From a virus (taxonomy: Duplodnaviria; Caudoviricetes), in the IMG/VR virus record IMGVR_UViG_3300027891_000004, positions 64,001-128,000 of that record: DNA of 64,000 bases; one strand, 5' to 3'. The notes below the pieces were generated by a model. It saw nothing but the letters and a program-made list of their open reading frames with translations, was not told the DNA's origin and did not search any database. Position numbers and translations under genes: made by a program. Positions 5,031-34,771 of the stretch are shown one piece after another; the first letter of the stretch is position 1; every line of letters begins with the position of its first letter.

Positions 5031-6197
5031 ATGCCCACGCAAAAGAAACAAAAAATGACGCCAGAAAACGATTTCCGTGAAATACTCCAAGAGACATTCC
5101 AAAAAATTGCACACGCGGCCACAGAAAATGAAAAACACTTAAAAAAACAAGAGACCAACAGCAGCATGACCGAGACGGAAACGATCTCTATACTGATCGA
5201 GCCGCTTATTACCATACTGGGGTACGACAAGAACGATCTTCGGGAAATCAGACAAGAATACACAGCAAAAAAGCAAACAACAAAAGGGAACAAAAGAGTA
5301 GACATTGCGATTCTCCAACGGCAGGATGGGAAAGCAATAATGGTCTGGGAATGCAAGGCAAGAAGAGTGCCGCTCGGCAACTCAGGGGTTTCGCAGCTTA
5401 GGGGATACTTTAAAACTCATAGGGCTGCCATTGGCGTTCTTACAAACGGCATCCACTACCAGTTCTACACAAACATCGACAACCCCGAAAGTAACGAAAT
5501 GGACAACGAACCTTTTCTGGAATACAACACAGGCAATAGTCTACCTCCCAATCAACTTGATGTTTTTGAGTACCTTAGAAAAGACAAGTTTAATCTGAAA
5601 CAAATACACGAAATAGGAAAAGAACAAAAGGACATCAACAGGATCAAACGGGTACTATACAGCCTTTTTTTGGAAACAGGCCCAGACGAATTTTACCAAA
5701 TAACAGCGGCAATGGCCAAACTCGGGAAAGGACTCGCCGAATCAAAACAGATTATCAAATCCGCCTTCATACGCATGGTAGAAGACGGCGTAATCCCAGC
5801 CGAAAGCACAGGAATTTTATACAAGGAAAAATTCGACGAATGGAAAACCAGTTTGTCAGAAACGACCGTGAAACTTTTTGAAAAATTAGAAAAGTACGTG
5901 TTAAGTCTCGAAAATGTCAAAACAAACCTTTCAAGTGCGTACAAAAGCTACGCGGCCCGCAAACAATTCATGCAAATGATGTACTGCGGCGGAAGAAAGA
6001 AACTAAGAATTCTACTGCTGGGATTGAACGTAGAAGAAATGGGAAAAGCCAAAAAATCATTGGAAAACACAGAGATACAATATCACGGCAAAGAACTTAG
6101 ACTCTTTATAGAGAACGAGGACAATTTGGAGAGAGCCAAACCGATTATTGAAAGAGCATACGAAAAAGCATACGAAAAAACGACAAAAAGAAAATAG
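5031..6197 (+). CDS. Solitary type I restriction enzyme R N-terminal (HsdR_N, PD-(D/E)xK) nuclease with DUF5655-like C-terminus; likely start 5055
   Basis: Motifs ETISILIEPLITILGYD, RVDIAI...WECK, QLRGYF, GVLTNGIHYQFY, MDNEPFL; C-terminal LFEKLEKYVLSL...AKPIIERAYE. A-rich and opposite in strand to its neighbours. Confidence 0.8.
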   Translation: MPTQKKQKMTPENDFREILQETFQKIAHAATENEKHLKKQETNSSMTETETISILIEPLITILGYDKNDLREIRQEYTAKKQTTKGNKRVDIAILQRQDGKAIMVWECKARRVPLGNSGVSQLRGYFKTHRAAIGVLTNGIHYQFYTNIDNPESNEMDNEPFLEYNTGNSLPPNQLDVFEYLRKDKFNLKQIHEIGKEQKDINRIKRVLYSLFLETGPDEFYQITAAMAKLGKGLAESKQIIKSAFIRMVEDGVIPAESTGILYKEKFDEWKTSLSETTVKLFEKLEKYVLSLENVKTNLSSAYKSYAARKQFMQMMYCGGRKKLRILLLGLNVEEMGKAKKSLENTEIQYHGKELRLFIENEDNLERAKPIIERAYEKAYEKTTKRK

Positions 6198-7633: not shown

Positions 7634-7692
7634 CGTGATAGTTATTGCTAAGGGCTATCGGGGCGACGGTTCCAAATATGGCTGCCATCCTC

Positions 7693-8058
7693 TTAATCTT
7701 TTCCTAAACTGTCATTATCATCCTGGATAATATCGGTTTTAATGTTGTGGATTGCCGTTCTGCCTTCCGGAGCGCATCGAGAACTGAACGCCTGTACAAT
7801 TTCTAAGCGAATGTAGCGGTATGGGCACATCTGTTCCGCTTCAAGTTCCGGCGGCATCAAAACATTTTCAACGTTGAATGCGGCTATGCGGTCGTTGTGT
7901 TTCACAAAATTGCGTATCGTTACCTGCAATTCGTCGATAACCAATTTGTCGCCCCGGACAAACATTTCAACAAACTCATCTATTGACCGGACATCCCAAA
8001 TCGTACAACCGGGTAGCGTCCAACCTCTGGGCGGCCTTATTGTTATTTTAATTTTCAT
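7693..8058 (-). CDS. Hypothetical protein, partner of leader gene 8055
   Basis: 4-bp ATGA overlap with the upstream leader gene. Confidence 0.6.
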   Translation of the reverse strand: MKIKITIRPPRGWTLPGCTIWDVRSIDEFVEMFVRGDKLVIDELQVTIRNFVKHNDRIAAFNVENVLMPPELEAEQMCPYRYIRLEIVQAFSSRCAPEGRTAIHNIKTDIIQDDNDSLGKD

Positions 8059-8462
8059 TGTGATCCGCCATATTTTTCTTTAAAATAATCATCGTATTGG
8101 ACAATATCTGATATTGTATAAACGCCCAATTCCATTAGCTCTTTTTTTCTATCTGCGTAATCATCTTTCCGTTTATCAATCATCGACATCATCGCCTTAT
8201 TAAGGTGCTGTTGAATTCTATCGCCGTCAGTTGGCATCCTTAAACGCCGCGATTCTTCGATAACTTCCTCTTCTAGCCCTAGAATAATATCTTTTTGTTT
8301 TTCCGCATCCCATTCGTTCCACGGTTGTGGTTTGCCTATAAACTCAGCATTATCAACCGTTGCGCCTTCGGTCGTGTTTTCCTCTTGAAACGCTGACATA
8401 TTGCCGCTACCACCGGCTTTGCCCGTTTCAAGCAATTCATTGAAACTACTCGCTACTCTCAT
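8055..8462 (-). CDS. Leader-family protein (MRVxxSFNELL subtype)
   Basis: MRVASSFNELLETGKAGGSGNMSAFQ; 22/26 identical to the 8870 leader, unrelated cargo. Confidence 0.8.
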   Translation of the reverse strand: MRVASSFNELLETGKAGGSGNMSAFQEENTTEGATVDNAEFIGKPQPWNEWDAEKQKDIILGLEEEVIEESRRLRMPTDGDRIQQHLNKAMMSMIDKRKDDYADRKKELMELGVYTISDIVQYDDYFKEKYGGSQ

Positions 8463-8533
8463 TTTATGTTTCATTCAAAAAAGTAACAAACGCAAACATC
8501 CGTAGTATGCCTGTTCCTATTATTTATCTGTTG

Positions 8534-8851
8534 CTAAGGGTTATCGGGGCGACGGTTCCAAATATGGCTCACGTACTGCAACACGTTTTTAATCGAAACT
8601 TCATTATCTGCAGCACAATCGTGGTATGTCCGTAACAAACAAGGAAAACAAGCAACGTGGAAGTAATGGGGGTCTGCGTTAGACGGCGTATAGCTGTAAA
8701 CAACATACACATCTGTTTTTCCGCATTTAGGACATGGCAGCAATTCGCTCTCTGTCTGTCGGATTAAACGCTTTAATTCATAAGCATCCTCCAAATCGTC
8801 CAAAGAGTATCGCAATTTTTCAGGAATATTTTGTTTTATTGTCGTTTTCAT
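8534..8851 (-). CDS. Lar-like (restriction alleviation) zinc-finger protein
   Basis: LLPCPKCG...VACFPC...WNRRP, the Lar_restr_allev family signature. Confidence 0.7.
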   Translation of the reverse strand: MKTTIKQNIPEKLRYSLDDLEDAYELKRLIRQTESELLPCPKCGKTDVYVVYSYTPSNADPHYFHVACFPCLLRTYHDCAADNEVSIKNVLQYVSHIWNRRPDNP

Positions 8852-8869
8852 GTTTTTCTAACAACAGTG

Positions 8870-9199
8870 CTATTCAAACCAGCCGTGCCCGTATTTCCAT
8901 TTGCCAAAACCATGCGTATTCTTAAATTGATCCGCCTGTTCTCTTGTAATTGACCGATAGCCTTCAAGAAAAAACGGATTGCCTTCAGAACCCGGTTCTG
9001 TTACAACAATGTCATACCCATCTCTATCCTGCGCAATATACAGCGAAATATCATAAAAAGATACGGGAGATAAATCCTCAACGGGCTTTTCTCCGGTCGG
9101 CATATTCTCCACTGAAACAGATTGAAACGCTGACATATTGCAGCTGCCACCGGCATTGCCCGTTTCAAGCAATTCATTGAAACTACCCACTACTCGCAT
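8870..9199 (-). CDS. Leader-family protein (MRV subtype), cargo type A
   Basis: Leader ...MSAFQSVSVEN; cargo homologous to 18525 (FKNTHGFGKW vs FKNTHKFDKW). Confidence 0.8.
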   Translation of the reverse strand: MRVVGSFNELLETGNAGGSCNMSAFQSVSVENMPTGEKPVEDLSPVSFYDISLYIAQDRDGYDIVVTEPGSEGNPFFLEGYRSITREQADQFKNTHGFGKWKYGHGWFE

Positions 9200-9255
9200 A
9201 ATATGTCCCTTTCAAAAAGAGTAACAAACGCAAACGTCTACGGTATGCCGGATTT

Positions 9256-10365
9256 TCATTCATTTCCCGCCTTGAAATTATACAACGGTTTTATTATTTT
9301 GACAACTTCCATCGTATCGCGGCTGTTCTCGATAATCTCGTTCATCGGCTTGTACGCCTGCGGTGCCTCGTCAATAGTCGCCCGGTTCACGGTGGACGAA
9401 CAGATTCCTTTCATCGATTTCTCGTATTCGATTAGCGTGATCTTTTCCTTCGCCTCTTTGCGGCTCATTACACGCCCGGCACCGTGCGGAGCCGAAAAGT
9501 TCCAATTGGCGTTCCCCTTCCCTACGCAAAGGAGGCTACCGTCCCGCATATTCATAGGCACCAATATACAGTCGCCGCTTCGGGCCGATACCGCACCTTT
9601 TCGTAAGATCATCGCATCCAAATCAATGTAATTGTGTACGACGGAAAACGTATCGACGATCTTGAACTTCGCCTGTTTTGATATGTCGCGGGCAATGGCC
9701 CGTCGGTTTAAGTCGGCGTATTGTTGGACGATGCCCATATCATGTAAATAATCGGACATCGGGGAGCCTTCCAAGTAGGCCAGTGCCCTATCGTCGCCTT
9801 CCTTTGTCCGACCCAACGTGTCGGCGGCCACGTTCTGATAATAGTCGCAAACCTGTTTGCCCAGATTGCGACTTCCGGAATGGACAATCAAATAGAGCTG
9901 TCCGTCATCGTCTTGCCCCAATTCAATAAAATGGTTCCCTCCGCCGAGCGTGCCCATTGAATGGGACGCACGGTGTAAATCGACGTGTTTTACGCATTTC
10001 AATTCAAATAAATCAATATCCTCGTTGAAATGATGCGGATCGTGTCGGGTGTTAAAACCAGCGGGTATGTTTTTTATAATCGCCTTGTCGAGTTGGTTTG
10101 GATCGACCCGTTTCTCCTTTATCAACGCGACGAACATCCCGCAACAACCGTCCGTCCCCACTAAATTGGGGACAATCTTATCCGTAATCGTCATGGTCAT
10201 TCCGACCGTACCGACCTGCCCGCTGTGGACATCGGGCATTACGCGGATTTGGCTTCCTTCGACAAATGGCTGGTTCAGGATATGCCGAATCTGCGCAATT
10301 GCGCCGGGTTCGGTGGTATCCGTGAATATCTTTGCCGTATTGTATGTTCCTTGTAATTCAATCAT
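9256..10365 (-). CDS. rtcB: RtcB-family RNA 3'-phosphate/5'-OH ligase
   Basis: MPDVHSG, VGTDGCCGM, GTLGGGNHFIE, VHSGSRNLG, HNYID, RKGA, SAPHGAGRVMSR, DEAPQAYK. Confidence 0.95.
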   Translation of the reverse strand: MIELQGTYNTAKIFTDTTEPGAIAQIRHILNQPFVEGSQIRVMPDVHSGQVGTVGMTMTITDKIVPNLVGTDGCCGMFVALIKEKRVDPNQLDKAIIKNIPAGFNTRHDPHHFNEDIDLFELKCVKHVDLHRASHSMGTLGGGNHFIELGQDDDGQLYLIVHSGSRNLGKQVCDYYQNVAADTLGRTKEGDDRALAYLEGSPMSDYLHDMGIVQQYADLNRRAIARDISKQAKFKIVDTFSVVHNYIDLDAMILRKGAVSARSGDCILVPMNMRDGSLLCVGKGNANWNFSAPHGAGRVMSRKEAKEKITLIEYEKSMKGICSSTVNRATIDEAPQAYKPMNEIIENSRDTMEVVKIIKPLYNFKAGNE

Positions 10366-10552
10366 TGTTTTTCATTCTGTGCTTGTCGCCTTTCGGTTTT
10401 GGGACGCTCTTGTTCGGTTCCGTTTTGTTCGTTTATCCTCATGCGTGCCTGCACCGCCACATCGTGGCGAATGTCCGGTCCGCTTTTTGACCTTTATAAT
10501 GAGTATGCAAGTTTTCTTCTTCTTCTTTTTCATTTTTATTTTTTTTTCAAAA

Positions 10553-10625
10553 TAGGCGATGCAGGGATCGAACCTGCGACCTACGGATTATGAGTCCGCA
10601 GCTCTAACCGCTGAGCTAATCGCCT
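10553..10625 (-). tRNA. tRNA with CAT anticodon (Ile2 or elongator Met; not initiator), CCA not encoded
   Basis: Minus strand AGGCGATTAGCTCAGCGGTTAGAGCTGCGGACTCATAATCCGTAGGTCGCAGGTTCGATCCCTGCATCGCCTA forms a full cloverleaf with a paired 1:72. Confidence 0.95.
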
Positions 10626-10748
10626 TTTTCCAGTTGCTTCTTTGCTTGTTGTCGTTCGCGTTTCTTCTGCGGACGGTAAACAGACTGTCTCGTTTCTTTT
10701 GACCAACGCTTTTTCCAGTACGATTTAGTAGCGTCATTTCCGTATGGC

Positions 10749-11126
10749 CTAATTTTTGTTCGTAATCTCATTCTTCGCTATCTCGAATTTTTTGAAGTCT
10801 TGCGCGTCAAACAACAATTCCAAGTCCCACCAATAAAATTCAAAAACATACCCGCATTCAAACCGTGATGTTTGCGCCTTATAGTATTCCACATTTTGAA
10901 TGTTTTGTTGATTGGCGTTTTGAAAAAACGGGCAGTAAGAACGCGGTATCCGGTAAGTTGCAAATGATGTACTTATAACAAAATCAGTATCCGTTACTGA
11001 ATGTACTTTTATCAAGGCATTTCGACGGTTGTTTTTCCCTCTGATTTTTTTTCTCGACGGGAAAAGCCTGTCGGGGGCGTTTTTAATCCGCTTCTTTATG
11101 CGCGTTATCTTTCGTCGATTGTTCAT
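10749..11126 (-). CDS. DUF2442-like protein (putative antitoxin)
   Basis: YRIPRSYCPFFQNANQQNIQNVE...FYWWDLELLF resembles the DUF2442 pattern P-x-x-W-F-P-x-L-x-x-A...I-H-W-P-D-L-D. Confidence 0.5.
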   Translation of the reverse strand: MNNRRKITRIKKRIKNAPDRLFPSRKKIRGKNNRRNALIKVHSVTDTDFVISTSFATYRIPRSYCPFFQNANQQNIQNVEYYKAQTSRFECGYVFEFYWWDLELLFDAQDFKKFEIAKNEITNKN

Positions 11127-11131
11127 TTTTA

Positions 11132-11263
11132 CTAAACTAAAGGAAGGGAATGATCTGGGTTGTTTTCGTTCCAATTTTCAATGTATTTATTCGGGTTATT
11201 CGCCATGTCCATTTGAACCGCCTTAATGATGTCTTTATCCACTCTTGTGGGTTCCATCAACAT
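11132..11263 (-). pseudogene. Possible truncated DUF4160 C-terminal remnant
   Basis: Hand translation MLMEPTRVDKDIIKAVQMDMANNPNKYIENWNENNPDHSLPLV resembles the end of 14949 and lies directly upstream of the DUF2442-like gene. Confidence 0.3.
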
Positions 11264-11404
11264 GCGGCTACTTAAAAGCAATCGAGTTAATCATCTTTTA
11301 CGTGCCTGGGATTCGCGGTCCGCCAACGGTCAGCCGCCTTTTCGTACTTTTTAACAAATTTTCGTCAAAACGCAACCGATCAAAACTGCCCGACGCAACA
11401 AAAC

Positions 11405-11420
11405 CCCGCCACGTGGCGGG
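11405..11420. repeat. Dispersed palindrome copy
   Basis: CCCGCCACGTGGCGGG just after the stop of 11425. Confidence 0.9.
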
Positions 11421-11424
11421 ATCG

Positions 11425-11862
11425 TTACGCCCAATAGGTCAAACTTGTTCCAGGTATCCGTCGCAGGTCCCAATTTTTCGTCGGCCGATCAAACAAATCT
11501 TCGACCTTGTTACATTGCGGGCAGGAATCGTCTTCGCAGGGCCAGCAATGCCCGCAAATCTCACAATGGTTATGCAGACATTCCGGGCATGTCAGCCATT
11601 CGTCTTCCGGTTCAAAAGCATATCTACAATTTTTGCACATCATTTTAACGTCGATACACTCGGACGTATGCGGCTTTGGTTTTTCGGCAACTATTACAAT
11701 CATGTCGATTCTCCTTTTATTATTTTGATTTCTTTTCGTATATTCATTGTTTGAAACAATCGGCACAGAGCAGGTAAGGGGGTCGGGGCAACTACAAAGA
11801 CCGGGCAGGGCTTCGCACCAGGCGCACCGGTAAGTATCATCGCATCGAACATATCTAGGCAT
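11425..11862 (-). CDS. Cys-rich zinc-finger protein
   Basis: Multiple CxxC pairs; AAGGAG RBS before MPRY (11862) and before MIVI (11703). Confidence 0.55.
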   Translation of the reverse strand: MPRYVRCDDTYRCAWCEALPGLCSCPDPLTCSVPIVSNNEYTKRNQNNKRRIDMIVIVAEKPKPHTSECIDVKMMCKNCRYAFEPEDEWLTCPECLHNHCEICGHCWPCEDDSCPQCNKVEDLFDRPTKNWDLRRIPGTSLTYWA

Positions 11863-11887
11863 CTGCGTCTCCTTTCTGGTTTTGTAT

Positions 11888-12103
11888 TTATGCAAACAAT
11901 TTCACGCGGGGAACGCAAACAACGCGGCCTTCCGGGCCTGGGACGATCCTCAATTTATCCTTCGATACCCACCCAAATCCGCGTATGTAAATATGAAGGG
12001 TCGTCATATCGTCGATAACGCTAAACGTATCAAACGGTATGTGATTCTTTGTTTTTTCGGTTATGAGTATCTCTTTCCCGATTTCAAACGTTTCTCTTTT
12101 CAT
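11888..12103 (-). CDS. Small hypothetical protein
   Basis: AGGAG RBS before MKRETFEIG. Confidence 0.5.
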   Translation of the reverse strand: MKRETFEIGKEILITEKTKNHIPFDTFSVIDDMTTLHIYIRGFGWVSKDKLRIVPGPEGRVVCVPRVKLFA

Positions 12104-12143
12104 TTCTATTTCTCCTATTTGAAAATGTGCGGTGTAACAACGT

Positions 12144-12374
12144 TCAGTTAAAAACAATAACATCCCATTCCGACGTATTGTATTTATTGGCCTTCTTTTC
12201 AAGCCGGATAACGCCGTCTTCAACAAGTTGCGAAATATGCGTTTTGAACTGGCGCCGCGTCCAACCGAAGTAAGCCATACCCAAGAGGTAAACGTCGTAT
12301 TCAAACAGGGCGAATCCGCCGTTTGAAAGATGTTCGCAAGCCTTTACGAACTGCGTCAAAAGTGTGTTTTGCAT
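12144..12374 (-). CDS. Small hypothetical protein (possible winged helix)
   Basis: AGGAG RBS; ISQLVEDGVIRL. Confidence 0.5.
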   Translation of the reverse strand: MQNTLLTQFVKACEHLSNGGFALFEYDVYLLGMAYFGWTRRQFKTHISQLVEDGVIRLEKKANKYNTSEWDVIVFN

Positions 12375-12444
12375 CGTCCCGATCTCCTATTGAAAAAGGT
12401 CTTGAACTTGCGGGGATCGTTCCCCGCACCTGTTTTTCAATAGA

Positions 12445-12463
12445 TTCGTAGAGCAAGTTTTCA
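12445..12463. promoter_or_regulatory. Repeated 19-bp upstream element, copy 1 of 3 (others 38724..38742 and 54236..54254)
   Basis: Identical TTCGTAGAGCAAGTTTTCA upstream of three minus-strand genes. Confidence 0.7.
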
Positions 12464-12494
12464 GGCAACTATGCAAAACATTACAAAGAAGTTT

Positions 12495-12734
12495 TTAATC
12501 AATAAGCAACTTTATCTTATCAGCAACTTCCTTTCCGTAATGTTCGGCCAACAGCGAATACATTGAATGCCCGGCTTCCTCATAGTTACCGTGTTGTTCA
12601 TGTAGCCATTTATCGAACTTGTACGGGTCTAAAAACGGTCTGCCCGTCAGCCACGAGAGCATACCGTCAAGGAAATTGCATATTTGCATATCGAACGTAT
12701 CCCTAAAAAATTTGATCGCTTCCTGGTGAGACAT
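12495..12734 (-). CDS. Hypothetical phage protein
   Basis: Clean ORF in the gene-dense minus-strand run. Confidence 0.6.
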   Translation of the reverse strand: MSHQEAIKFFRDTFDMQICNFLDGMLSWLTGRPFLDPYKFDKWLHEQHGNYEEAGHSMYSLLAEHYGKEVADKIKLLID

Positions 12735-12814
12735 ACGCCAATTCCCGTTCTAAAAAAAATACAAGTTAAATCAAAAAAAAACTTCCAACTAAGTATGCCG
12801 GATTATAACGCGAA

Positions 12815-13576
12815 TCAATTTGTTTTTTCTTTTTCGGCGTTCTTTTCGGCAAGCCACGCGAAGTATTCATCGGGGCTACTGAACTGTATTTGGCCTGCCT
12901 TCGGGGTGGGGAGCGGGGCCGAGTTTGCGTCTTTCCTGGTCTTGTTCGCCAGCTTATTCAATTCTTCAAGATGCGCTATTTCTTCGGGCAACAAGCGTAG
13001 CATCCAATGTATTTGATAACTCGTCAAATCAAGAATTTGGTCAACCGTCCAACCGTACTTTTCGGCCAACCCTTTGAAGATACGGGCCACGTTTTCGTCA
13101 GGAGTCGATTCGACACGCGGACTATCACTCTCAGGCTGCGGCGGATCGGGCGGGAGCGGGCAAAAAGTAGCTTGTTGCATCTCCGCGAGGAGCAACCGCG
13201 AGGTTTCGGAGATGCCGTTCGGAAAAAACAGCTTTTTTAGCTTTGCATCGGCCCACGCTGGTGCGTCGCGGATAAGCAACTTAATAAAACGAACCAAATA
13301 ATCAATATGAGAATATAAAAACTCATGGCCGATACCTACTTGGAAATCAAAGTCTTCGATTTTATTCAACGCAAGATCAACAAACTCGGCACGTTCGCTT
13401 TCGGGCACCAACTTAATCTGATCGTCAAACTGTTTGGCATACTTGTATTTAAGCCACGTATTGAAATCAATAAGATCGCGTTGTCGCAAAGGGTATACCC
13501 ATAGCGTATGCCGGTCCAATTCGTAGGGGACCGGCGATTGCGACATAGCCGATTTGTGCGTGTACGGTAAGATCAT
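12815..13576 (-). CDS. Putative tail assembly chaperone with C-terminal extension
   Basis: Paralog of 6983; C-terminal LAEKYGWTVDQILDLTSYQI resembles the gpT-like part of tail chaperones. Confidence 0.55.
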   Translation of the reverse strand: MILPYTHKSAMSQSPVPYELDRHTLWVYPLRQRDLIDFNTWLKYKYAKQFDDQIKLVPESERAEFVDLALNKIEDFDFQVGIGHEFLYSHIDYLVRFIKLLIRDAPAWADAKLKKLFFPNGISETSRLLLAEMQQATFCPLPPDPPQPESDSPRVESTPDENVARIFKGLAEKYGWTVDQILDLTSYQIHWMLRLLPEEIAHLEELNKLANKTRKDANSAPLPTPKAGQIQFSSPDEYFAWLAEKNAEKEKTN

Positions 13577-13639
13577 GTGAATTGAAAACGATTCATTTAC
13601 CGTATGTATGCCAGAACGCGCCAGAAATTCAAGAACAAA

Positions 13640-14089
13640 TTAGCATCTTCGCCGGGGGAAACGCGCCGGGACCGCCTGCAGGGTAGGGACAAACGATTGT
13701 CGGCCCTGCAATGCCAATTCCGTATCCGCCATGCGCTGGGCAAGGCAGTTATTCGGATCGAGCAGCATCGCCTGCTGCCCGTGCAAAGAACCTCGAAGGA
13801 ACGCATCGGTAGTCATAGCATACGCCTCGCTGGCCGCGCCGACCGATTTTGAGGTAACAACGCCGGTAGATACCTGGAACTGGTGCGCCGCTAGATAAAG
13901 CGTAATCGCCTCGATCTGCTCAGGCGTATAATTTGCCATACACCCGTTCAAAATACTTGTCTGGACCATAAGCGACGCGGTTTTGATAGCCATATCCAAC
14001 GTCGCGTCGGCGGTCGGCGGTATGTTCGGGTACACCTCCCGTACTTTTCCGTGCGTTGTGTAGGGCGGGGTCATGTCTTTCGGTGCCAT
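13640..14089 (-). CDS. Head-tail adaptor (DUF4054-like)
   Basis: LYLAAH...SKSVGAASEAY...SLHGQQAMLLDP. Confidence 0.7.
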   Translation of the reverse strand: MAPKDMTPPYTTHGKVREVYPNIPPTADATLDMAIKTASLMVQTSILNGCMANYTPEQIEAITLYLAAHQFQVSTGVVTSKSVGAASEAYAMTTDAFLRGSLHGQQAMLLDPNNCLAQRMADTELALQGRQSFVPTLQAVPARFPRRRC

Positions 14090-14119
14090 TGCTGCTATAT
14101 TGTATGATTGGTTATTGTC

Positions 14120-14482
14120 CTATTTTTTCCGTTTCAATGCCTCGCGCACTTGGCTATCCTGTTCGTCGGCGATTTCGTAGGCAACGGTATCGTTCGCGTT
14201 GTGCGCATCCCGCAGCTGAATCCTAAAAAAATTGACGAGTTTATTCAAATCATCAACGCTATAGGCGGCGTACTCTTTGATGTTTTGTTCTCTTTCGCTT
14301 ACCAATTTCTTCAGGTCCTCGGAACCGACGGCACCCTGAAAACTAAGCGTCCAGTCCAATTTTCCTTTTGGTTCCCGCATCGAGGGTAGCGGACCAACCG
14401 GGACGGGCATCGCCGCGTTAAATGAGGCATTAGCGCATTGTTGCAAATGCTCAAACTGTGATATGTCTGCCAATTTTTTCAT
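14120..14482 (-). CDS. Leader-family protein
   Basis: MKKLADISQFEHLQQCANASFN. Confidence 0.8.
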   Translation of the reverse strand: MKKLADISQFEHLQQCANASFNAAMPVPVGPLPSMREPKGKLDWTLSFQGAVGSEDLKKLVSEREQNIKEYAAYSVDDLNKLVNFFRIQLRDAHNANDTVAYEIADEQDSQVREALKRKK

Positions 14483-14512
14483 TGTGATTCCACTAAAAAT
14501 TACGCACGTCCG

Positions 14513-14947
14513 TCATATAACAAATGAATCTTGGCTGTCGTTCCAATGCCGCCTATCAATATAATTTACGGATAATTCCAAACCTGCGATAGTACAAACA
14601 AAGTGGTGTCCGCAATGATCCGTATGCGTATCCCAATGATAACCAAGCGATATTAAATCATCAACCAGGGCCATTTCAAATTCCAACAATTTGTGTTTTG
14701 GTCGTCGCCATAGTTTAGAAAGTAGCACAAAACCTGGATTTCCACGTCGTCCCAACGCGGCATAGTATAGCCCTTTAGTTAGCCAACATATAGGATTTAA
14801 TTTGTTCAAAACATACGGCAATTTGAAATTGAATTCTAAACCGTAGTCTAAAACCACAAATCGAAAAAACAAACCTAAAAACGCCAACTTAATTGCGACG
14901 TTAATCACGCTATGCCTACTGTACCACCATTCTTTTAAACTGTCCAT
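14513..14947 (-). CDS. Hypothetical protein, partner of 14949
   Basis: MDSLKEWW starts 1 bp after the stop of the leader-DUF4160 gene; AT-rich. Confidence 0.55.
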   Translation of the reverse strand: MDSLKEWWYSRHSVINVAIKLAFLGLFFRFVVLDYGLEFNFKLPYVLNKLNPICWLTKGLYYAALGRRGNPGFVLLSKLWRRPKHKLLEFEMALVDDLISLGYHWDTHTDHCGHHFVCTIAGLELSVNYIDRRHWNDSQDSFVI

Positions 14948-14948
14948 T

Positions 14949-15386
14949 CTAATCCTCTCGTAACAGCTGTTGCCTTGCCTGCTCATCTTGCCAATCTTTT
15001 ACAAAACCATTTCTGTTCTTTTTAATGTGTTTTTTGATGTCGCTTACAATAGGGGCAGGTATGCCATTATTTTCGGCCAACTCGACAACGGCCTGACCAT
15101 TGTATTCAAGCCAAAATTTTGCTTTTCCTTCCGGCGTATAGACGTGAACGTGCATAGGTTCTGTTCTGCCGCCATGCTGTTCTTCGTCAACGTAAACAGA
15201 AAATGAAAAACCACGAAATGGCGGCGTATTCTTTGATTTGGGCGACATATTGCCGACAACGGCACTTTGAAATGCACCTGACAACTTGGAAACTGCCGCA
15301 CCATCATTAAACATGGACATTTCGCTTCGAGGCATATCCCAGTTCCCCAACGATTCAAACATTGATATATCAGCCAACCTTTCCAT
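14949..15386 (-). CDS. Leader-family protein carrying a DUF4160 domain
   Basis: Leader MERLADISMFESL...MSMFN...AFQSAVVGN, then MSP...FRGFSFSVYVDEEQH...EPMHVHV...AKFWL...KDW. Confidence 0.8.
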   Translation of the reverse strand: MERLADISMFESLGNWDMPRSEMSMFNDGAAVSKLSGAFQSAVVGNMSPKSKNTPPFRGFSFSVYVDEEQHGGRTEPMHVHVYTPEGKAKFWLEYNGQAVVELAENNGIPAPIVSDIKKHIKKNRNGFVKDWQDEQARQQLLRED

Positions 15387-15418
15387 TATTCTATCTTTCT
15401 TCGTGATTCGGCGAGTTG

Positions 15419-15802
15419 TTACTCTTGGAGATACCTACGATTCCATGATTCGCATATACGTCTTAGAGATTCTTTGAAATCTTCTTCATCGTCTTCCGCA
15501 TACCATGTTACTGTTTGCATACCGCATTCTGGATTGCTGCAACTAGCGTATAATCCATGAGGATTTATTGTAAATTCCACGCCGTAAGTGCCATCTTCTT
15601 TTTTCACGCTTCGTCCACCATTTTTTCCGGGATAAAAGGCGTATTCAATACGAGGCTTTTCCTGCCCACAATTTGCGCACGGTAACAATGAAACCTCAAA
15701 CGGTTCTATTAACGCTAGAATTTCGGCTTCATTTTCCAACATGCAGGCATAAAAACAAGCGGCAGAACCGGGCTTGAATTCTGGGGTCAATTTACTATTC
15801 AC
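15419..15802 (-). CDS. Lar-like zinc-finger protein
   Basis: LLPCANCG...CSNPECG...WNRRY; paralog of 18108 and 8534. Confidence 0.7.
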   Translation of the reverse strand: MNSKLTPEFKPGSAACFYACMLENEAEILALIEPFEVSLLPCANCGQEKPRIEYAFYPGKNGGRSVKKEDGTYGVEFTINPHGLYASCSNPECGMQTVTWYAEDDEEDFKESLRRICESWNRRYLQE

Positions 15803-16199
15803 AGCTCACCTCTTCATTTTCAAATTTTACCAAACCTTCTATACTGTCGCCCCAAGTAGAACCGGAACGAACGCGGTTTATGTATTGTAACGCCTCTGCC
15901 CGGTCCGTAAAAGGCGATCCTTGTACAACAAATGAATCTTCCATCGGGTTATCTGGGTTTGTCGCAATTATATCCAAACCTTTGCCTTCCGGATTTTTTC
16001 GTAACGAAAATTTATACTGTTTTCCGGTCATCTTGCTTTTAGGCTTACTAAAATTTGGCGACATACTATCTACGATGGCATCTTGAAAAATCTCCGACAG
16101 GCGAGCAACCGCACCACTATTAAACATGGACATTTCGCTTCGAGGCATATCCTCGCTCCCCAACGATTCAAACATTGATATATCTGCCAACTTTTCCAT
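15795..16199 (-). CDS. Leader-family protein, divergent cargo type A
   Basis: Leader 24/27 identical to 14949; cargo YKFSL...GLDIIATNP resembles 8870 and 18525. Confidence 0.8.
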   Translation of the reverse strand: MEKLADISMFESLGSEDMPRSEMSMFNSGAVARLSEIFQDAIVDSMSPNFSKPKSKMTGKQYKFSLRKNPEGKGLDIIATNPDNPMEDSFVVQGSPFTDRAEALQYINRVRSGSTWGDSIEGLVKFENEEVSCE

Positions 16200-16237
16200 A
16201 GCAGTATGCAAAAAAAGAAAAAATACTGATCAAAATT

Positions 16238-16768
16238 TTATTTCAATCCGGCCCGCACATTGTTGTCCATATCTTCAATATCGTTTTTGAATGTTTCGTA
16301 TGCCGCATCGAGGTCTTTGTCGCCGTTCTGCAATTGATCGAAAATTCTGTATTGTTTATCCGCCTCTTGCGACAACTTGGTATGCGAGTGCAAAAACGTA
16401 CCCAACGAATCCAACATCCCCTGCTCGCCCTGGGCTACTTTTGCCAGTGTCTGTATCTCTTTTTTCGGTATACTGGGAAACTGTTTGACGACTGATTTAA
16501 GCGTCCGTTTACCCCCGTTCAATTCACGCAGGGCCGAATAGACCTTTTTGAATTCGGGTCCCGTCACGCCCCGGCTCTCAAACTGTCCCATAAACGCCTC
16601 TTTTTGCGCCCGGAAATCATCGCCCGCCTGTGCCGCCTCGTAATGGAACGGCTTTACTTTTTCAACGAACCCGTCCGATAATTGCGAGTTGAAACACGAC
16701 ATGGGCGACATCATGCGTTGATTCGCGTGTGCCTGCAACGATTCAAATTGTGAAATATCTGCCTGCAT
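16238..16768 (-). CDS. Leader-family protein
   Basis: MQADISQFESLQAHANQRMMSPMSCFN. Confidence 0.8.
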   Translation of the reverse strand: MQADISQFESLQAHANQRMMSPMSCFNSQLSDGFVEKVKPFHYEAAQAGDDFRAQKEAFMGQFESRGVTGPEFKKVYSALRELNGGKRTLKSVVKQFPSIPKKEIQTLAKVAQGEQGMLDSLGTFLHSHTKLSQEADKQYRIFDQLQNGDKDLDAAYETFKNDIEDMDNNVRAGLK

Positions 16769-16772
16769 TGTC

Positions 16773-17291
16773 TTACTTTTGTTGTGCGTAGTATTGCATC
16801 GCTTCCTCTTTGGTAGCGAATTTTGGCATTTCTTTTTTCGGTTGCGCCGTCCCGCCGGGCAATTCTACGGGTTTGAAAGCGTCGCCGCCCAACAGGTACG
16901 TATTGCCCAAAAACGACTTGGCTATCGCCGCCTGTTTTTTCATCAAGCGGTCATGCGCTTTCGGATCGTCTTTAACCTGTTCGCCTTCCTGTCGTATCTC
17001 GCGGCTAACTTCGCCGACCCCGGCTTTCATAGTATCGACCGCGTTATCGATTTCCGGGCGGATCGATTTGTATGTTTGCTGCGCCTGCCGCACTTCCTGC
17101 TCGTTTCGGGAATGCCAAATATCCTGCTGCGTTTCGTAGACTCCGCGCAAACCGCCTTTCAATATCTCATAGGCGCGGTCCATCGATTGGAGCGTCTGGT
17201 CCAATTCGGGCGAATTGAAGCATGACATAGCAGATACCCCGCCACGTGGCGGGGTATCCAATAATTCGTTAAATGAATTTACAACTCGCAT
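16773..17291 (-). CDS. Leader-family protein (MRV subtype); start revised from 17483
   Basis: MRVVNSFNELLDTPPRGGVSAMSCFN. Confidence 0.8.
   Translation of the reverse strand: MRVVNSFNELLDTPPRGGVSAMSCFNSPELDQTLQSMDRAYEILKGGLRGVYETQQDIWHSRNEQEVRQAQQTYKSIRPEIDNAVDTMKAGVGEVSREIRQEGEQVKDDPKAHDRLMKKQAAIAKSFLGNTYLLGGDAFKPVELPGGTAQPKKEMPKFATKEEAMQYYAQQK
17233..17258. repeat. Dispersed palindrome copy inside a leader coding region
   Basis: Perfect 26-bp GATACCCCGCCACGTGGCGGGGTATC encoding DTPPRGGVS. Confidence 0.9.
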
Positions 17292-17293
17292 GG

Positions 17294-17641
17294 TTATCTT
17301 TGGGCTATTGCCTGTTCTATCCGATCCAAACGAGTATTTGTATCGCTTTGCAACCGGAGTAGTTTTGCATCTACGTTTGCAAAACCGTTCTTTGTGGTGA
17401 TTTCCAAATTGTCCATTCGGCTTTCTAATTTTCCAAACCGTTCGTCTATTTTTCCAAATCGCTCGTCCACCTGCTTCCTCCACTCAACCAATGGAAGATT
17501 ACTCTGTATAGGCGTAGCTGAACTTATGGGACTTATGCCACTCGGCGCATTTTGCACAGGATTAAACGCCCCCAAACCGGAAACAGGGGCACCCACGGCT
17601 CCCAACGATTCAAACATACCAATATCAGCGAGCTTTTCCAT
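17294..17641 (-). CDS. Leader-family protein, coiled-coil cargo type B
   Basis: MEKLADIGMFESLG...LGAFNPVQN; DNLEITTKNGFANVDAK. Confidence 0.8.
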   Translation of the reverse strand: MEKLADIGMFESLGAVGAPVSGLGAFNPVQNAPSGISPISSATPIQSNLPLVEWRKQVDERFGKIDERFGKLESRMDNLEITTKNGFANVDAKLLRLQSDTNTRLDRIEQAIAQR

Positions 17642-17646
17642 GTTTA

Positions 17647-18069
17647 TCACTTTCGTAAAAGTTGTTCCCGGTACGCTTGGTAGCTTTCGGGCGTTAGGTT
17701 CAGGTAACGGAGCATTTCCTGCGAAGGCGTCTCCGTTTTTCTAATCGCATCCTGTACTTGCAACATCCCCTTTTCGCGTGAGGCTCGTTCGGCGCCCCAA
17801 TCGTCATACGGATCATCCTGCCGGTCCCCGGCGGCGTCGCCCGTAGCGAAATCGGGGTAGACCCGCTTGATCGTTTTGGCTACATCGCGTGGGTGCATCC
17901 GACCCCCGTCGTCCAAATAAGAGAGCATATCGGGCAGGGTAGTGCCCTGGAACGCGGCGTTTACGCTCACGGCGCGCAGGCTACGGTCATCAAACGTAAA
18001 CATAGCGGGTATGCCAAATGCCGCGTTCTGTTGCGTCTGTAGCTGCGAAAATAGTGGGATACTGTCCAT
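17647..18069 (-). CDS. Leader-family protein (MDSIPLFSQL subtype)
   Basis: First 41 aa identical to 18525, then unrelated. Confidence 0.8.
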   Translation of the reverse strand: MDSIPLFSQLQTQQNAAFGIPAMFTFDDRSLRAVSVNAAFQGTTLPDMLSYLDDGGRMHPRDVAKTIKRVYPDFATGDAAGDRQDDPYDDWGAERASREKGMLQVQDAIRKTETPSQEMLRYLNLTPESYQAYREQLLRK

Positions 18070-18107
18070 TTCAATTTATAGGCGTTGACGTTACTACAAC
18101 AGTATGA

Positions 18108-18506
18108 CTACTTACCTGTCCTTTTATTCCATGCGCTGCAGACGCGCCTTAACGCTTCTACAAAATCGTCTTCGGTATCTTCGGCATTCCACACTCTTGT
18201 TTGGATTCGGCAATCTTCAATATCTGAGGGCGGATCAGTAGCAGCATTTCGGCAACACACAACATACAACTCATGCGGGCATTCCTTCATGGGGATTTCG
18301 CCGTTTGGTTGCAGCTGAGTTGGGAACATATTACCGGGGCGGTACATGTAATGTACATGCGGACGATCATTTCCGCAATGCGCACAGGGCAGCAAGGTGG
18401 CATCAGCCTCGTTAATGAGGGTAGCTATTTCGGACTCGTTTTCAAGCTCGTACAAAAAACAACGAGTACGGCCATCACAATTGCCTGTTTTTAGTTTTGT
18501 ATTCAT
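18108..18506 (-). CDS. Lar-like zinc-finger protein
   Basis: LLPCAHCG...WNKRT. Confidence 0.7.
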   Translation of the reverse strand: MNTKLKTGNCDGRTRCFLYELENESEIATLINEADATLLPCAHCGNDRPHVHYMYRPGNMFPTQLQPNGEIPMKECPHELYVVCCRNAATDPPSDIEDCRIQTRVWNAEDTEDDFVEALRRVCSAWNKRTGK

Positions 18507-18524
18507 TATTGCACCTCATAAAAG

Positions 18525-18887
18525 CTAAAATAAGTACCCCCACTTATCAAACTTATGCGTATTTTTGAACGCGATTGCTTCTTGAGCCGTTATATTATCC
18601 ATATCTTCGATATACGCTGTTTGTTTGCCGCCATCGGGGTCTGAAACGGCAATCCCACACCTGTCCGTTCCTTGAACAGGGTGTAGCGAAAAAACGTAAT
18701 GTCTGTCTGGACGCAATTCTGATAAAGAGATTAAGCCGCTCGGAAAGTTTTCTACGGAAACGTCTTGGAACGCGGCGTTTACGCTCACGGCGCGCAGGCT
18801 ACGGTCATCAAACGTAAACATAGCGGGTATGCCAAATGCCGCGTTCTGCTGCGTCTGCAACTGCGAAAAAAGAGGGATAGAATCCAT
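18525..18887 (-). CDS. Leader-family protein (MDSIP subtype), cargo type A
   Basis: ...VNAAFQDVSVEN; cargo homologous to 8870. Confidence 0.8.
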   Translation of the reverse strand: MDSIPLFSQLQTQQNAAFGIPAMFTFDDRSLRAVSVNAAFQDVSVENFPSGLISLSELRPDRHYVFSLHPVQGTDRCGIAVSDPDGGKQTAYIEDMDNITAQEAIAFKNTHKFDKWGYLF

Positions 18888-18898
18888 ACTGATTTCCT

Positions 18899-19258
18899 TT
18901 ACAATCGTCTCAAAATGCCCTTGCGAACTGCGTCGTTTATTTTACTCTTTACTTCACGTTCCAATTGGGCCATACTGATTTCATCGTCTGGCCGACGCGC
19001 CTTCACGCCTTCCAATTTGAACCGCATCTTTTCGCCCACCCGGTTCATCACAAGTGTGCCGATAGTGCGTCGTAGATTCTCCTGTGTCGCGAGCGGTATT
19101 TTACGATTCTGTCGTTCTCTGGGGTCTCGCCGGTCCGTAACGCCCTTCTTGCGAAGTTCGGCAAGCACTTCATTTTTTACAAACTGCTCTACTTTATTCG
19201 TTACTCGTTGTCGGACCGCCTTGTGTATAGCGGCTTCTATCGTCTTTTGTAGACTCAT
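18899..19258 (-). CDS. Possible HK97 gp10-like neck/tail completion protein
   Basis: Basic; IPLATQENLRRTIG resembles PVDTGNLRRSI. Confidence 0.35.
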   Translation of the reverse strand: MSLQKTIEAAIHKAVRQRVTNKVEQFVKNEVLAELRKKGVTDRRDPRERQNRKIPLATQENLRRTIGTLVMNRVGEKMRFKLEGVKARRPDDEISMAQLEREVKSKINDAVRKGILRRL

Positions 19259-19260
19259 AG

Positions 19261-19605
19261 CTATCTTTGCATAAGAGCTTGTTTGATACTTGCCACATCC
19301 TGCTCCAAACGATCAAATCGCGTATTTGTGTCGTTATGCAACCGTTCTATTTTTGCGTCTACGTTTGCGAAACCGTTCTTTGTAGCAATTTCCAAATTAT
19401 CAATTCGGGCTTCAAGGCCATCGACCCGCTTGCTCAAATTCTGGCCCCATTGTGGCATAGGAAGGTTACCCTGGACGGACGCGGGGGAACCGACGGGGTT
19501 CACGCCCGGCGCGTTCTCAATCGTATTGAACGCGCCCAAATTCGACAATCCGACGTTTCCGGTTCCAAGCGATTCAAACATCCCAATATCTGCGAGTTTT
19601 TCCAT
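19261..19605 (-). CDS. Leader-family protein, coiled-coil cargo type B
   Basis: MEKLADIGMFESLG...LGAFNTIEN; DNLEIATKNGFANVDAK. Confidence 0.8.
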   Translation of the reverse strand: MEKLADIGMFESLGTGNVGLSNLGAFNTIENAPGVNPVGSPASVQGNLPMPQWGQNLSKRVDGLEARIDNLEIATKNGFANVDAKIERLHNDTNTRFDRLEQDVASIKQALMQR

Positions 19606-19634
19606 AATTATCACTTCCGTAAAAGTTGTATTTG

Positions 19635-20027
19635 CTATTGTGGCAATTCGTCGGGCGAGCCGCTACCAAAACTAGGCGAGCCGATAAGGGCTGGCGGGCC
19701 GCCTGAGGGGACGCTCGGCGTGTCTGAGGACTGGTCATTCCCCATACCGCCTTTTTGCAGGTCGGCCACGGCGGTCCGCGTACCACGCATACCAGCATCC
19801 AATCTATTATTCAACTCGTCAAGAACCCCCTCAAGTTTCGCTTGTTCGGCCTCGGCCTCGGCGTCCGCCCGGAGCCTGCGAAGCGAATCAATTTGCGTCA
19901 TCCAACTTTCGACGCTTGTTTTAATATCCTCAACAGTCGCGTTAAACACGGACATGGGCGACATCATGCGCCGGTTCGCGCTCGATTGGAGATTCTCAAA
20001 CATTGAAATATCGGCAAGTTTTTCCAT
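19635..20027 (-). CDS. Leader-family protein
   Basis: MEKLADISMFENLQSSANRRMMSPMSVFN. Confidence 0.8.
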   Translation of the reverse strand: MEKLADISMFENLQSSANRRMMSPMSVFNATVEDIKTSVESWMTQIDSLRRLRADAEAEAEQAKLEGVLDELNNRLDAGMRGTRTAVADLQKGGMGNDQSSDTPSVPSGGPPALIGSPSFGSGSPDELPQ

Positions 20028-20039
20028 AGTAAATCCTCA

Positions 20040-20261
20040 TTAAATATCAATGATTTCGTTGACCGCCTCCGCGGCGGTCTTCAAATTAAACTGCGCATTC
20101 GCAATATCGACGGCGGACGGCGGATGACGACGTGCTTCAAGCTGCAACAAATACAACTCATGTCGCAAATCGTCCCGCTTCTTCTCCAAACGCCACAGGG
20201 CAGCTTCAACTTCTTTGAGCCCCTGCTCCACGGCGTATATTCGATCTGAAATAGACATTAT
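20040..20261 (-). CDS. Small coiled-coil protein, downstream partner of 20266
   Basis: MSISDRIYAVEQ starts 4 bp after the 20266 stop. Confidence 0.5.
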   Translation of the reverse strand: MMSISDRIYAVEQGLKEVEAALWRLEKKRDDLRHELYLLQLEARRHPPSAVDIANAQFNLKTAAEAVNEIIDI

Positions 20262-20265
20262 CGGT

Positions 20266-21060
20266 TCAATAGTCGCTGGCCGCCTCGAACCTGGCCTTTT
20301 CTTTTTCAAACTTAGCTTGATATTCTGCTAACTCTTGCCTCGCTTTTTCAATATATTCGGATTCAGAAACAGGGTCTTTTGAATAGGGAAACCGCCGCTC
20401 CAACTGCGCTAATTTCATCTCAGCCTGTTCAAACCGATCTTGGGCATCAAACATCCAACGTCGTAATGCTGGCGTGTTTTGGGAATCTTCCCATTTCTTT
20501 ATCTCGTCAAATTTTGGGATTGTGCGCTTTATATCGTCAAGCTGCTCTTTAATGACAGATGGGCGTTCGTCATAGTCACGTTCGTTTCCTTTTTCATCGT
20601 ATTTATCGGGGTTTCCCGTGGCAATCCTTTTCGCCCGCTCCAATTTGTCGCTTTCGCTTTCTGTTATTTGCCGCTGCGGTCGATCATCCTCTATCGGCAA
20701 CTTTTTTTGGACCGGCTGTTGGTCAATTTCGGCCAACAATTGCTGAGCTTTCGCCTGCGTGTCTTTGCCGACACGACGGCGGGTAGTTGCGACAGCATCA
20801 AAAAACTGACGAGCGACTTCTCTATCTCGTTCGTCCCAGCTACCAATTACGTCCGCCAACGTATCCGGCAACTCCAATTGGTTTTGGTCCAACGGACCAC
20901 TTTCATCTCTTAGCTCGTTTAATTTTTCTTGATAATATGCGGCACGGGCGCCGTTAAACGTATGTTTGTAGTTAAACACGCTCATCTGCGACATGCCCAT
21001 CGCGTTGTGTGCGCCGGATTGAAGGTTCTCAAACACAGAAAGGTCTGCTAGTTTTTGCAT
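20266..21060 (-). CDS. Leader-family protein, long helical cargo
   Basis: MQKLADLSVFENLQSGAHNAMGMSQMSVFN. Confidence 0.8.
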   Translation of the reverse strand: MQKLADLSVFENLQSGAHNAMGMSQMSVFNYKHTFNGARAAYYQEKLNELRDESGPLDQNQLELPDTLADVIGSWDERDREVARQFFDAVATTRRRVGKDTQAKAQQLLAEIDQQPVQKKLPIEDDRPQRQITESESDKLERAKRIATGNPDKYDEKGNERDYDERPSVIKEQLDDIKRTIPKFDEIKKWEDSQNTPALRRWMFDAQDRFEQAEMKLAQLERRFPYSKDPVSESEYIEKARQELAEYQAKFEKEKARFEAASDY

Positions 21061-22881: not shown

Positions 22882-23232
22882 CTATTCAGTTTCTTGTTCG
22901 GGCACGCCGGGCGGGTAAAGCACATTGGTTTTAGCGATAAAATACGCGCGGACAAACGGGATAGCATCCAAAGTATGTATCGCAAACGACGAGCATATAC
23001 TTACCAACCCGCCGTATAGAAACAACGAGACAAGGCAGGGCCACCCGAAAGATGCCGTCGTTAGGCAAAAGTACAAAACGCCGACCCAGAACCCGACGCA
23101 CATCGGACATTGCGCCCCGTACCGCAAACCATCGGTCGGGAGCGAATCCCGCAGCGACTGAAGTATCGCCGAACGGGTAAGTATATTAACCAAACCGACA
23201 AGCGATATAAGTTCAAGTATTGCTATGTTCAT
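22882..23232 (-). CDS. DUF1360-like membrane protein (possible holin-like)
   Basis: CPMCVGFWVG motif and about 3 hydrophobic segments. Confidence 0.55.
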   Translation of the reverse strand: MNIAILELISLVGLVNILTRSAILQSLRDSLPTDGLRYGAQCPMCVGFWVGVLYFCLTTASFGWPCLVSLFLYGGLVSICSSFAIHTLDAIPFVRAYFIAKTNVLYPPGVPEQETE

Positions 23233-23325
23233 TTTCGTTATAAAAGAAGGGGCGACGGCAGAACCGCCGCCCCAACCACCTTTTTCCCAAACCTTCTCTT
23301 GCGCGGGCAAGAACTCCCGCACCCG

Positions 23326-34754: not shown

Positions 34755-34771
34755 GGCTTTCTCCTTTTTCG

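Follow-up and report, generated by a model that had tools for sequence, protein, structure and literature searches.

The window analysed here is a 64,000-nt stretch comprising bases 64001–128000 of a 167,820-bp uncultivated virus record in IMG/VR (IMGVR_UViG_3300027891_000004), estimated to be 94% complete; coordinates are window positions unless marked 'genome'. Nearly all of its genes are carried by the minus strand, and the region 8055–21060 is a hyperplastic array of small genes, in which otherwise unrelated proteins share a short N-terminal leader (Table 1). The leader motifs are LADISxFExLQ followed by MSVFN, or FQ in some cases, and at least 27 leader open reading frames (ORFs) were found in this genome by profile search. 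Three modules of the array (M1, M2 and M3) each contain a pair of genes with closely matching leaders and different cargo, together with a domain, cargo A, that recurs behind leaders of different types. Leader and cargo have very probably been shuffled by recombination.

The six genes of these leader pairs all lie on the minus strand. Their DNA was compared by start-anchored alignment, and repeats were ranked by self-blastn of window positions 6000–36000, in which no direct repeat scored better than these three pairs (E 1e-32 to 1e-47): 122 nt with 93% identity in 17647/18525 (17948–18069 versus 18766–18887), 128 nt with 87% identity in 8055/8870 and 91 nt with 92% identity in 14949/15795. The initial annotation had counted 41 of 41 identical N-terminal residues ending in AAFQ and then immediate divergence in the first pair, 22/26 matching leader residues in the second and 24/27 in the third, and these counts are exact; the true starts of 8055 and 15795 are at 8462 and 16199. 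In 17647/18525 the DNA identity begins at the ATG. Eight differences fall within the first 38 nt (codons 1–13) and one in the final Gln codon, all of them synonymous; codons 14–40 are 100% identical in DNA, and past the FQ codon 20 of 60 nt match, which is the chance level. In 8055/8870 identity extends from approximately 45–50 nt upstream of the ATG to the FQ codon, beyond which it is again at the chance level. Shared upstream DNA (∼50 nt), with weak promoter-like hexamers, occurs in this pair only, the other pairs starting at the ATG. The breakpoint of 14949/15795 is layered and does not lie simply at FN: DNA identity is 94% over nt 1–81, and past FN an indel-containing stretch of ∼65% identity extends across a second FQ motif as far as ATGTCGCC (Met-Ser-Pro codons), about 21 codons further on. 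The sharp loss of identity that had been predicted at the AFQ/FN junction was thus observed in two of the three pairs, whereas the third runs on beyond it; the overall pattern far exceeds what chance would produce.

Other leaders of the same type in the genome (17294/19261/50185, 8870/16773 and 19635/20266) are saturated at synonymous sites, with the peptide conserved. The leader family is therefore old and under purifying selection, while the three neighbouring pairs are recent, and their near-identity reflects recent exchange rather than selection on the peptide. DNA sharing limited to the leader is also found in an independent related contig of 171.6 kb (L060), in which neighbouring genes share DNA over the leader only (82 nt at 90%, 95 nt at 84% and 67 nt at 88% identity), as well as between neighbours in the related contigs L003 and L004.

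Cargo A sits behind leaders of the MRV (8870), MDSIP (18525) and LADIS (15795) types, and the initial annotation regarded it as homologous in all three genes, more distantly in 15795. This is clear for 8870 and 18525, which share 39% identity over 76 residues after removal of the leaders (E 4e-15; phmmer 1e-12). The homology of the 15795 cargo is weakly supported, with pairwise BLASTP values of 8e-5 against 8870 and 0.03 against 18525, scores that were reached by 3/2000 and 67/2000 shuffles, and an hhalign probability of 54% (E 1.3e-4). It aligns collinearly with both of the other genes, its second FQ lying opposite their AFQ, and shares their synteny: a Lar-like zinc-ribbon gene comes after every cargo-A gene, and these genes (8534, 15419 and 18108) are homologous to one another. 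The nearest pair differs, however, being 8870 and 18525 for cargo A and 15419 and 18108 for the Lar-like genes, so these neighbours may not share one history. No family match was found for cargo A, a word-index search returned cargo A alone, and its matches in the Atlas are unnamed phage clusters only; neither cargo A nor Lar was found in the related 171.6-kb contig with the queries used. A weak structural resemblance of cargo A to the FtsH extracellular domain (TM of about 0.5) was obtained on a low-confidence model, and nothing was drawn from it.

A second payload, DUF4160, occurs behind two leader types, in 14949 and in two further copies at genome 5936–6418 and 6775–7380. All three copies begin natively with the 8-nt sequence ATGTCGCC, which occurs within the 5' portion of 15795 as well. 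These payloads keep their own Met-Ser-Pro start, which directly follows FN in two copies and lies 21 codons after FN in 14949. The fusion in 14949 at ATGTCGCC is thus a microhomology junction that retains the own Met of the captured ORF. Elsewhere in the window, a domain of a toxin of a toxin–antitoxin system (phrog_3066, 8e-6) lies at 43977–44489 (minus strand) behind a looser leader-like N-terminus that ends in ...SVDN right before Met; the gene overlapping it downstream (43501–44001) has only a marginal DpnD/PcfM match.

That leader and cargo have different histories, with breaks clustering at the leader/cargo boundary, is also supported by the leader phylogeny. The initial annotation had proposed comparing the two histories, and in an approximately unbiased (AU) test on the leader alignment, which comprises only 30 columns, a single group for the leaders of the three cargo-A genes was rejected with a log-likelihood difference of 51.5 (p ∼4e-44). 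Furthermore, the leader of 17647/18525 has a mosaic structure, its 5' third being old and diverged at synonymous sites and the remaining 3' two-thirds identical, which implies that at least one recombination or conversion event ended inside the leader DNA, with the other end at the edge of the homology. In M1, a 39-nt non-coding relic of a Lar-like gene tail (7645–7683) follows the stop of gene 7693 at a distance of 13 nt. A unit reaching from promoter and leader to the Lar tail was therefore duplicated, with the relic at its right end, and the interior of the second copy was replaced; in that copy, the 8055 payload and gene 7693 took the place of cargo A and most of Lar.

The small genes of the array may therefore be described as a portable 5' module, consisting of a leader of 26–46 residues and in one case ∼50 nt of upstream DNA, joined to an exchangeable payload. 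Local duplication of a promoter–leader unit, with or without cargo A and Lar, would come first, and the interior would then be replaced by illegitimate or microhomology-mediated joining at or just past the leader end. Recurrent homologous exchange or gene conversion between directly repeated leaders would homogenize neighbours, leader-flanked cassettes could be lost, gained or swapped between co-infecting relatives, and selection would retain only in-frame fusions behind the leader. The use of leader homology itself in some of these events is probable. The initial annotation had proposed leader DNA as the homology arm. The mosaic in 17647/18525 supports this for some events; however, exchange within a leader cannot move cargo between leader types, so other events, namely duplication and illegitimate or microhomology joining, are also needed. 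The leader subtypes, which had been called interchangeable, are shown to be so in an evolutionary sense only: a profile made up of foreign leaders exclusively gives E values of 0.04 for the MDSIP type and 0.9 for the MRV type.

A rival account would dispense with leader DNA as a recombination substrate altogether, with local tandem duplication of a leader gene and random illegitimate capture of payloads as the only processes and the sharp junctions arising from selection for in-frame joining to a functional tag. The Lar-tail relic as a duplicated unit with a replaced interior, and the joining of DUF4160 at 8 nt of microhomology that lie outside the leader proper, would both be expected in such a case, and self-blastn of 6–36 kb found no right-hand homology arm for M2 or M3, which also counts against the exchange proposed above. 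So do the weakly supported assignment of 15795 as a cargo A homologue and the direction of the events, which may have been either the copying of a leader onto a neighbour or the replacement of a payload. However, a second event ended inside the leader of 17647/18525, the identity in 14949/15795 has two layers (94% over the leader versus ∼65% over the next 64 nt) and several neighbours in L060 share leader DNA pairwise at differing levels. Duplication and capture alone are thus considered unlikely to suffice. Divergence in situ, with conserved peptides in old paralogues under purifying selection and no recent exchange, is far less credible still. The eight synonymous and zero non-synonymous changes in codons 1–13 of 17647/18525 have the expected form, but the same genes contain 84 nt that are identical at every position, all synonymous sites included, beside payloads with no detectable similarity, while equally conserved leader peptides elsewhere differ at most synonymous sites, and the leaders of the cargo-A genes were rejected as one clade in the AU test. 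An assembly artefact, in which strains or loci were misjoined at repeated leaders, has to be considered for a metagenomic viral contig, as exact 84-nt repeats can mislead short-read assemblers. Yet the copies lie ∼740–820 nt apart in direct order with unique flanks, an arrangement in which a repeat swap would only delete a segment or restore the order, and the pattern recurs in three different modules and in independent contigs from other samples; this explanation is accordingly very improbable.

Table 1. Genes and other features of the leader array and head-gene region (window positions).
Feature	Position	Strand	Remarks
M1 gene 3: MRV leader as in 8870, upstream block (8385–8511), unrelated acidic cargo	8055–8462	−	
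M1 Lar-like restriction-alleviation-type zinc-ribbon gene	8534–8851	−	PF14354 1.8e-5, below cut-off; phrog_599 1.1e-5
M1 gene 1: MRV-type leader and cargo A	8870–9199	−	Repeat copy 9122–9249 takes in ∼50 nt upstream
Non-coding relic: last 10 codons and stop of Lar-like gene	7645–7683	−	97% identical to 8531–8569
M2 gene 3: LADIS leader as in 15795, first cargo-A codons, DUF4160	14949–15386	−	PF13711 1.5e-10
M2 Lar-like zinc-ribbon gene	15419–15802	−	PF14354 0.0033, below cut-off; paralogue matches
M2 gene 1: LADIS-type leader with second FQ motif and distant cargo A	15795–16199	−	
M3 gene 3: same MDSIP leader as 18525 (17947–18069), unrelated cargo	17647–18069	−	
M3 Lar-like zinc-ribbon gene, without leader	18108–18506	−	Homologous to 15419 (1e-22) and 8534 (1e-8); no Pfam match of its own
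M3 gene 1: MDSIP-type leader (41 residues, 18765–18887) and cargo A	18525–18887	−	
LADIS-type leader gene	14120–14482	−	Second motif degenerate
LADIS-type leader gene	16238–16768	−	
MRV-type leader gene ending FN	16773–17291	−	12 synonymous codon differences from the 8870 leader
LADIG-type leader gene	17294–17641	−	Cargo homologous to 19261 and 50185
LADIG-type leader gene	19261–19605	−	Paralogue of 17294
LADIS-type leader gene	19635–20027	−	Orthologues in related phages (P0022; L062 5050–5520)
LADIS-type leader and 234-residue coiled-coil-like cargo	20266–21060	−	First gene after DUF2213 gene; candidate scaffold/core protein from its position
Putative prohead protease/scaffold, 564 residues: DUF2213 N-domain and ∼360-residue C-terminal extension	21184–22878	−	PF09979
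Major capsid protein, DUF6260, encapsulin-like	27873–29024	−	
Mu-F-like protein	54252–55697		
Portal	56426–57958		PF06381

The array adjoins the head genes. No close cultured relative was found in phage records, where the sole DNA-level match was to a tRNA, and the protein matches of the portal and of the DUF2213 protein are distant only. The latter protein matches phrog_530 (2.9e-9) and PF09979 (1.3e-7), and the PHROG families concerned are annotated as head maturation protease. An AlphaFold model of its N-domain made with only four sequences was too poor for a fold search (mean predicted local distance difference test score of 48.5). The nearest solved relatives of the capsid protein by sequence are the shells of type 1 encapsulins (EncA, 2e-10), and no solved phage capsid protein is nearer. 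The gap between the capsid and DUF2213 genes (24462–27729, minus strand) holds a ParB_N-like gene, a PAPS-reductase and DUF3440 gene and a gene for a 513-residue HNH-endonuclease-like protein; relatives carry small leader genes in place of this trio. Between M1 and M2, an RtcB RNA ligase gene (9256–10365, minus strand; PF01139 5e-66) adjoins a tRNA-Met gene (10553–10625, minus strand), and at the edge of the array a plus-strand gene (5031–6197) encodes HSDR_N, the N-terminal domain of type I restriction R subunits (3e-12). Most leader genes among the gene starts between 8000 and 21100 lack a Shine–Dalgarno-like sequence, and an A-rich stretch of 10–15 nt precedes the ATG. An element resembling TGATATAATGCG is common to the upstream regions of the plus-strand leader genes 23522 and 62904, and a 58-nt direct repeat (90%; 23324–23380 versus 33674–33730), possibly a shared promoter, lies upstream of the minus-strand genes 22882–23322 and 33103–33627.

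Beyond this genome, a search of 1.84 billion proteins with the leader profile gave 195 cluster representatives at E ≤ 0.001. Of the 150 matches listed, five are repeat artefacts, and nearly all of the others match residues 1–30 of proteins of 50–320 residues, the remainders of which are unrelated. The leader is a phage-specific N-terminal tag, with about 190 distinct tagged proteins in metagenomes. Pfam contains no family for it, and no paper with the leader motifs was found in the literature. IMG/VR was scanned for relatives with the DUF2213 protein and its alignment, with the leader alignment and with a degenerate DNA pattern, and none was found, the single pattern match (L005) being a chance match; of 54 pattern loci in metagenomes, only about five have real leaders. 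The foreign payloads (133 members) include a sigma-70 factor, a GreA/GreB factor and DUF4160, and the others have no family match or a marginal coiled-coil match. One 2.6-kb foreign contig (P0012) encodes a complete sigma-70 factor (regions 2 and 4) behind two tandem leaders. Within the window, a leader-like start (...FADISRFENLQ) at 52807–52953 (plus strand) meets a stop after the first motif, probably because the leader gene has decayed or suffered a frameshift.

Proteins with 55–74% identity to the capsid protein are encoded on contigs as long as 246 kb. In four of these contigs, the DUF6260 capsid gene and the DUF2213 gene are flanked by leader genes, the number of which varies between relatives. 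The three closest capsid genes in genome collections (L064, L065 and L066; 68–73% identity) occur in metagenome-assembled genomes (MAGs) of Planctomycetaceae, a binning that hints at the host phylum. In one of these MAGs (G001, 5.2 Mb), all 13 leader matches fall on a single phage-like contig of 171.6 kb, which is about the size of the present phage.

The junction between leader and payload is strongly conserved. Across 154 proteins, P5 is M or L, P4 is S, A or G, P3 is V, P2 is F (100%) and P1 is N (97%) or Q; P1' is small or acidic, and conservation is absent beyond it. Four ORFs end exactly in ...(M/A)(S/A)AFQ-stop, namely 34203–34823 (minus strand), 62904–63479 (plus strand), genome 25879–26448 (plus strand) and 161877–162098 (minus strand), and three of them also begin with a leader. 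Foreign homologues of this payload family (P0085 and P0140) likewise end in AFQ or AFN. Such a C-terminal ...AF(Q/N) could mimic the end of a cut leader or act as a C-terminal targeting peptide. In addition, the DUF2213 domain ends in LL(I/V)N, followed by E or Q, in four of four aligned orthologues.

Taken together with the capsid-targeting sequence (CTS) of phage T4 and the head signal of phage P1 DarB, the leader and junction evidence suggests that the leader is a capsid-targeting propeptide, and a role as a virion-packaging tag is somewhat favoured. The leader would carry its payload into the procapsid and would be cut off after Asn or Gln, most likely by the adjacent DUF2213 protease/scaffold protein. 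We consider the prospects of cleavage after this residue to be evenly balanced; it is indirectly favoured by the end of conservation at the P1 Asn/Gln, by the native Met starts that follow FN and by the payload-family proteins that end exactly like a cut leader. The payloads would then ride in the head and enter the host with the DNA; among them are DUF4160, a HigB-like toxin and cargo A in this phage, and a sigma factor and GreA/B in its relatives. For the locus as a whole, shuffled leader-tagged cargo genes with a putative capsid-targeting tag form the best explanation, and one that we hold to be reasonably likely.

Several points weigh against the packaging and cleavage of the tagged proteins, both of which are deduced from sequence and analogy. 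Pa193 gp24, which is the archetype of PF09979, was described not as a protease but as a putative scaffold (PMC11456595), and the protease label of the DUF2213 protein derives from PHROG annotation. Prohead proteases of the T4 and phiKZ types cut after Glu, not after Asn or Gln (PMC9026906). No junction-type motif was found near the N-terminus of the capsid protein, and MRV-type leaders have no significant similarity to the foreign LADIS profile (E 0.9). The leaders might instead belong to precursors of ribosomally synthesized and post-translationally modified peptides (RiPPs), serve as host export signals or address proteins to an intracellular compartment made by the phage. Many paralogues that share a conserved N-terminal leader but are hypervariable beyond it do fit RiPP families and polymorphic toxins, and one related contig has a weak Peptidase_C39_2 match and another a radical SAM gene within 10 kb. 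However, the payloads are folded domains of 60–290 residues (sigma-70, GreA/B and DUF4160) rather than short cores, and the junction is FN/FQ rather than GG. Furthermore, MAG G001 has no leader match outside its phage contig, and all of the relatives examined have their leader genes grouped with those for the capsid and DUF2213 proteins. The RiPP and secretion readings were rejected as misfits with the payload domains and the phage-only distribution, and with the FN/FQ junction in the case of RiPPs; a function other than packaging is on the whole improbable.

The closest known counterpart of the proposed packaging tag is the T4 CTS, an N-terminal peptide on injected internal proteins, including the anti-restriction protein IPI* (PMC9026906). 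In both systems a short N-terminal peptide is carried by otherwise unrelated small proteins (IPI, IPII, IPIII and Alt in T4), and the set of tagged genes is not conserved but differs from one relative to another. A plausible role of the payloads is to act on the host during entry, as IPI* does in blocking a restriction enzyme, and the T4 tag has itself been proposed to be an evolutionary device for placing new proteins in the head (PMC9026906). However, the present leader has 26–46 residues and two motifs, in contrast to 10–19 residues in T4, its junction is Phe-Asn/Gln rather than Leu/Ile-x-Glu, and its head neighbour is a DUF2213 protein rather than a gp21-type protease. Moreover, the capsid protein is encapsulin-like, and there are at least 27 tagged genes per genome rather than a handful. 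In the present system, packaging and cleavage are predictions. It works like the T4 CTS but falls outside the T4 family, given the differences in tag length, junction motif and head neighbour. An N-terminal stretch of ∼30 residues is similarly sufficient to send a protein into the head of phage P1 (Dar/DarB; PMC9024508), where packaged proteins shield the incoming DNA from restriction; here, cargo A always adjoins a Lar-like gene of the restriction-alleviation type. Unlike the present leader, the P1 signal is not a family spread over dozens of genes, and the anti-restriction role is that of the P1 proteins.

With regard to shuffling, the promoter early stem–loop (PeSL) cassettes of T4-type phages offer a parallel (PMC2839356, PMC4122927), in that repeats of ∼100 bp located 5' of small variable genes are proposed recombination sites, at which cassettes would be excised, inserted or swapped within hyperplastic regions. 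In PeSL the repeat is an intergenic promoter and stem–loop, whereas here it is mostly coding leader, and only 8055/8870 share upstream DNA. The initial annotation had likened the locus to polymorphic toxins (CdiA-CT, Rhs and orphan modules). The likeness holds only for the layout, in which a constant N-terminus is joined at a conserved motif to a variable C-terminal domain, a small gene lies downstream and recombination runs via the constant part; the CTS of the T4 internal proteins is nevertheless the closer analogue (PMC9026906). The constant part here is a tag of ∼30 residues on proteins of 109–264 residues instead of a large delivery domain, the system is phage-borne and most payloads are not recognizable toxins. 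The downstream gene is an immunity gene in polymorphic toxin loci, to which the Lar-like gene downstream of cargo A corresponds in position. Cargo-loading peptides of family 1 encapsulins also come to mind, as the capsid protein is nearest to EncA shells and a short motif stands at protein ends, true C-termini among them. Those peptides bind the shell, whereas the likeness seen here is one of shell sequence and of the terminal position of the motif, in a phage head with a portal, a Mu-F-like protein and tail genes. The leader motif is not known to resemble encapsulin cargo peptides in sequence.

In its fullest form, which we judge to have slightly less than an even chance of being correct, the interpretation is that a clade of ∼170-kb phages, probably infecting Planctomycetaceae and having an encapsulin-like capsid, uses an undescribed two-motif tag, LADISxFExLQ ... 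MSVFN, cut after Asn or Gln, to load dozens of proteins per virion, including sigma factors, transcript-cleavage factors and toxins of the mRNA-interferase type, with the DNA of the tag serving as a recombination handle. Tagged capsid-packaged proteins are the first weapons of a phage at entry, and such tags underlie phage protein-delivery tools. If the interpretation is correct, the T4 idea of one tag for many payloads would have arisen separately and been carried much further here, and the payloads would reprogram or cripple the host before phage gene expression. The tag would provide a sequence rule for listing the injected effectors of uncultivated phages, and the DUF2213 head protein would become a candidate for a new cleavage specificity, after Asn or Gln. 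The locus would also be a worked example of effector recruitment, through tag duplication, the capture of complete ORFs from their own start codon onwards and exchange via tag DNA, and these phages would possess a natural and evolvable platform for protein delivery.

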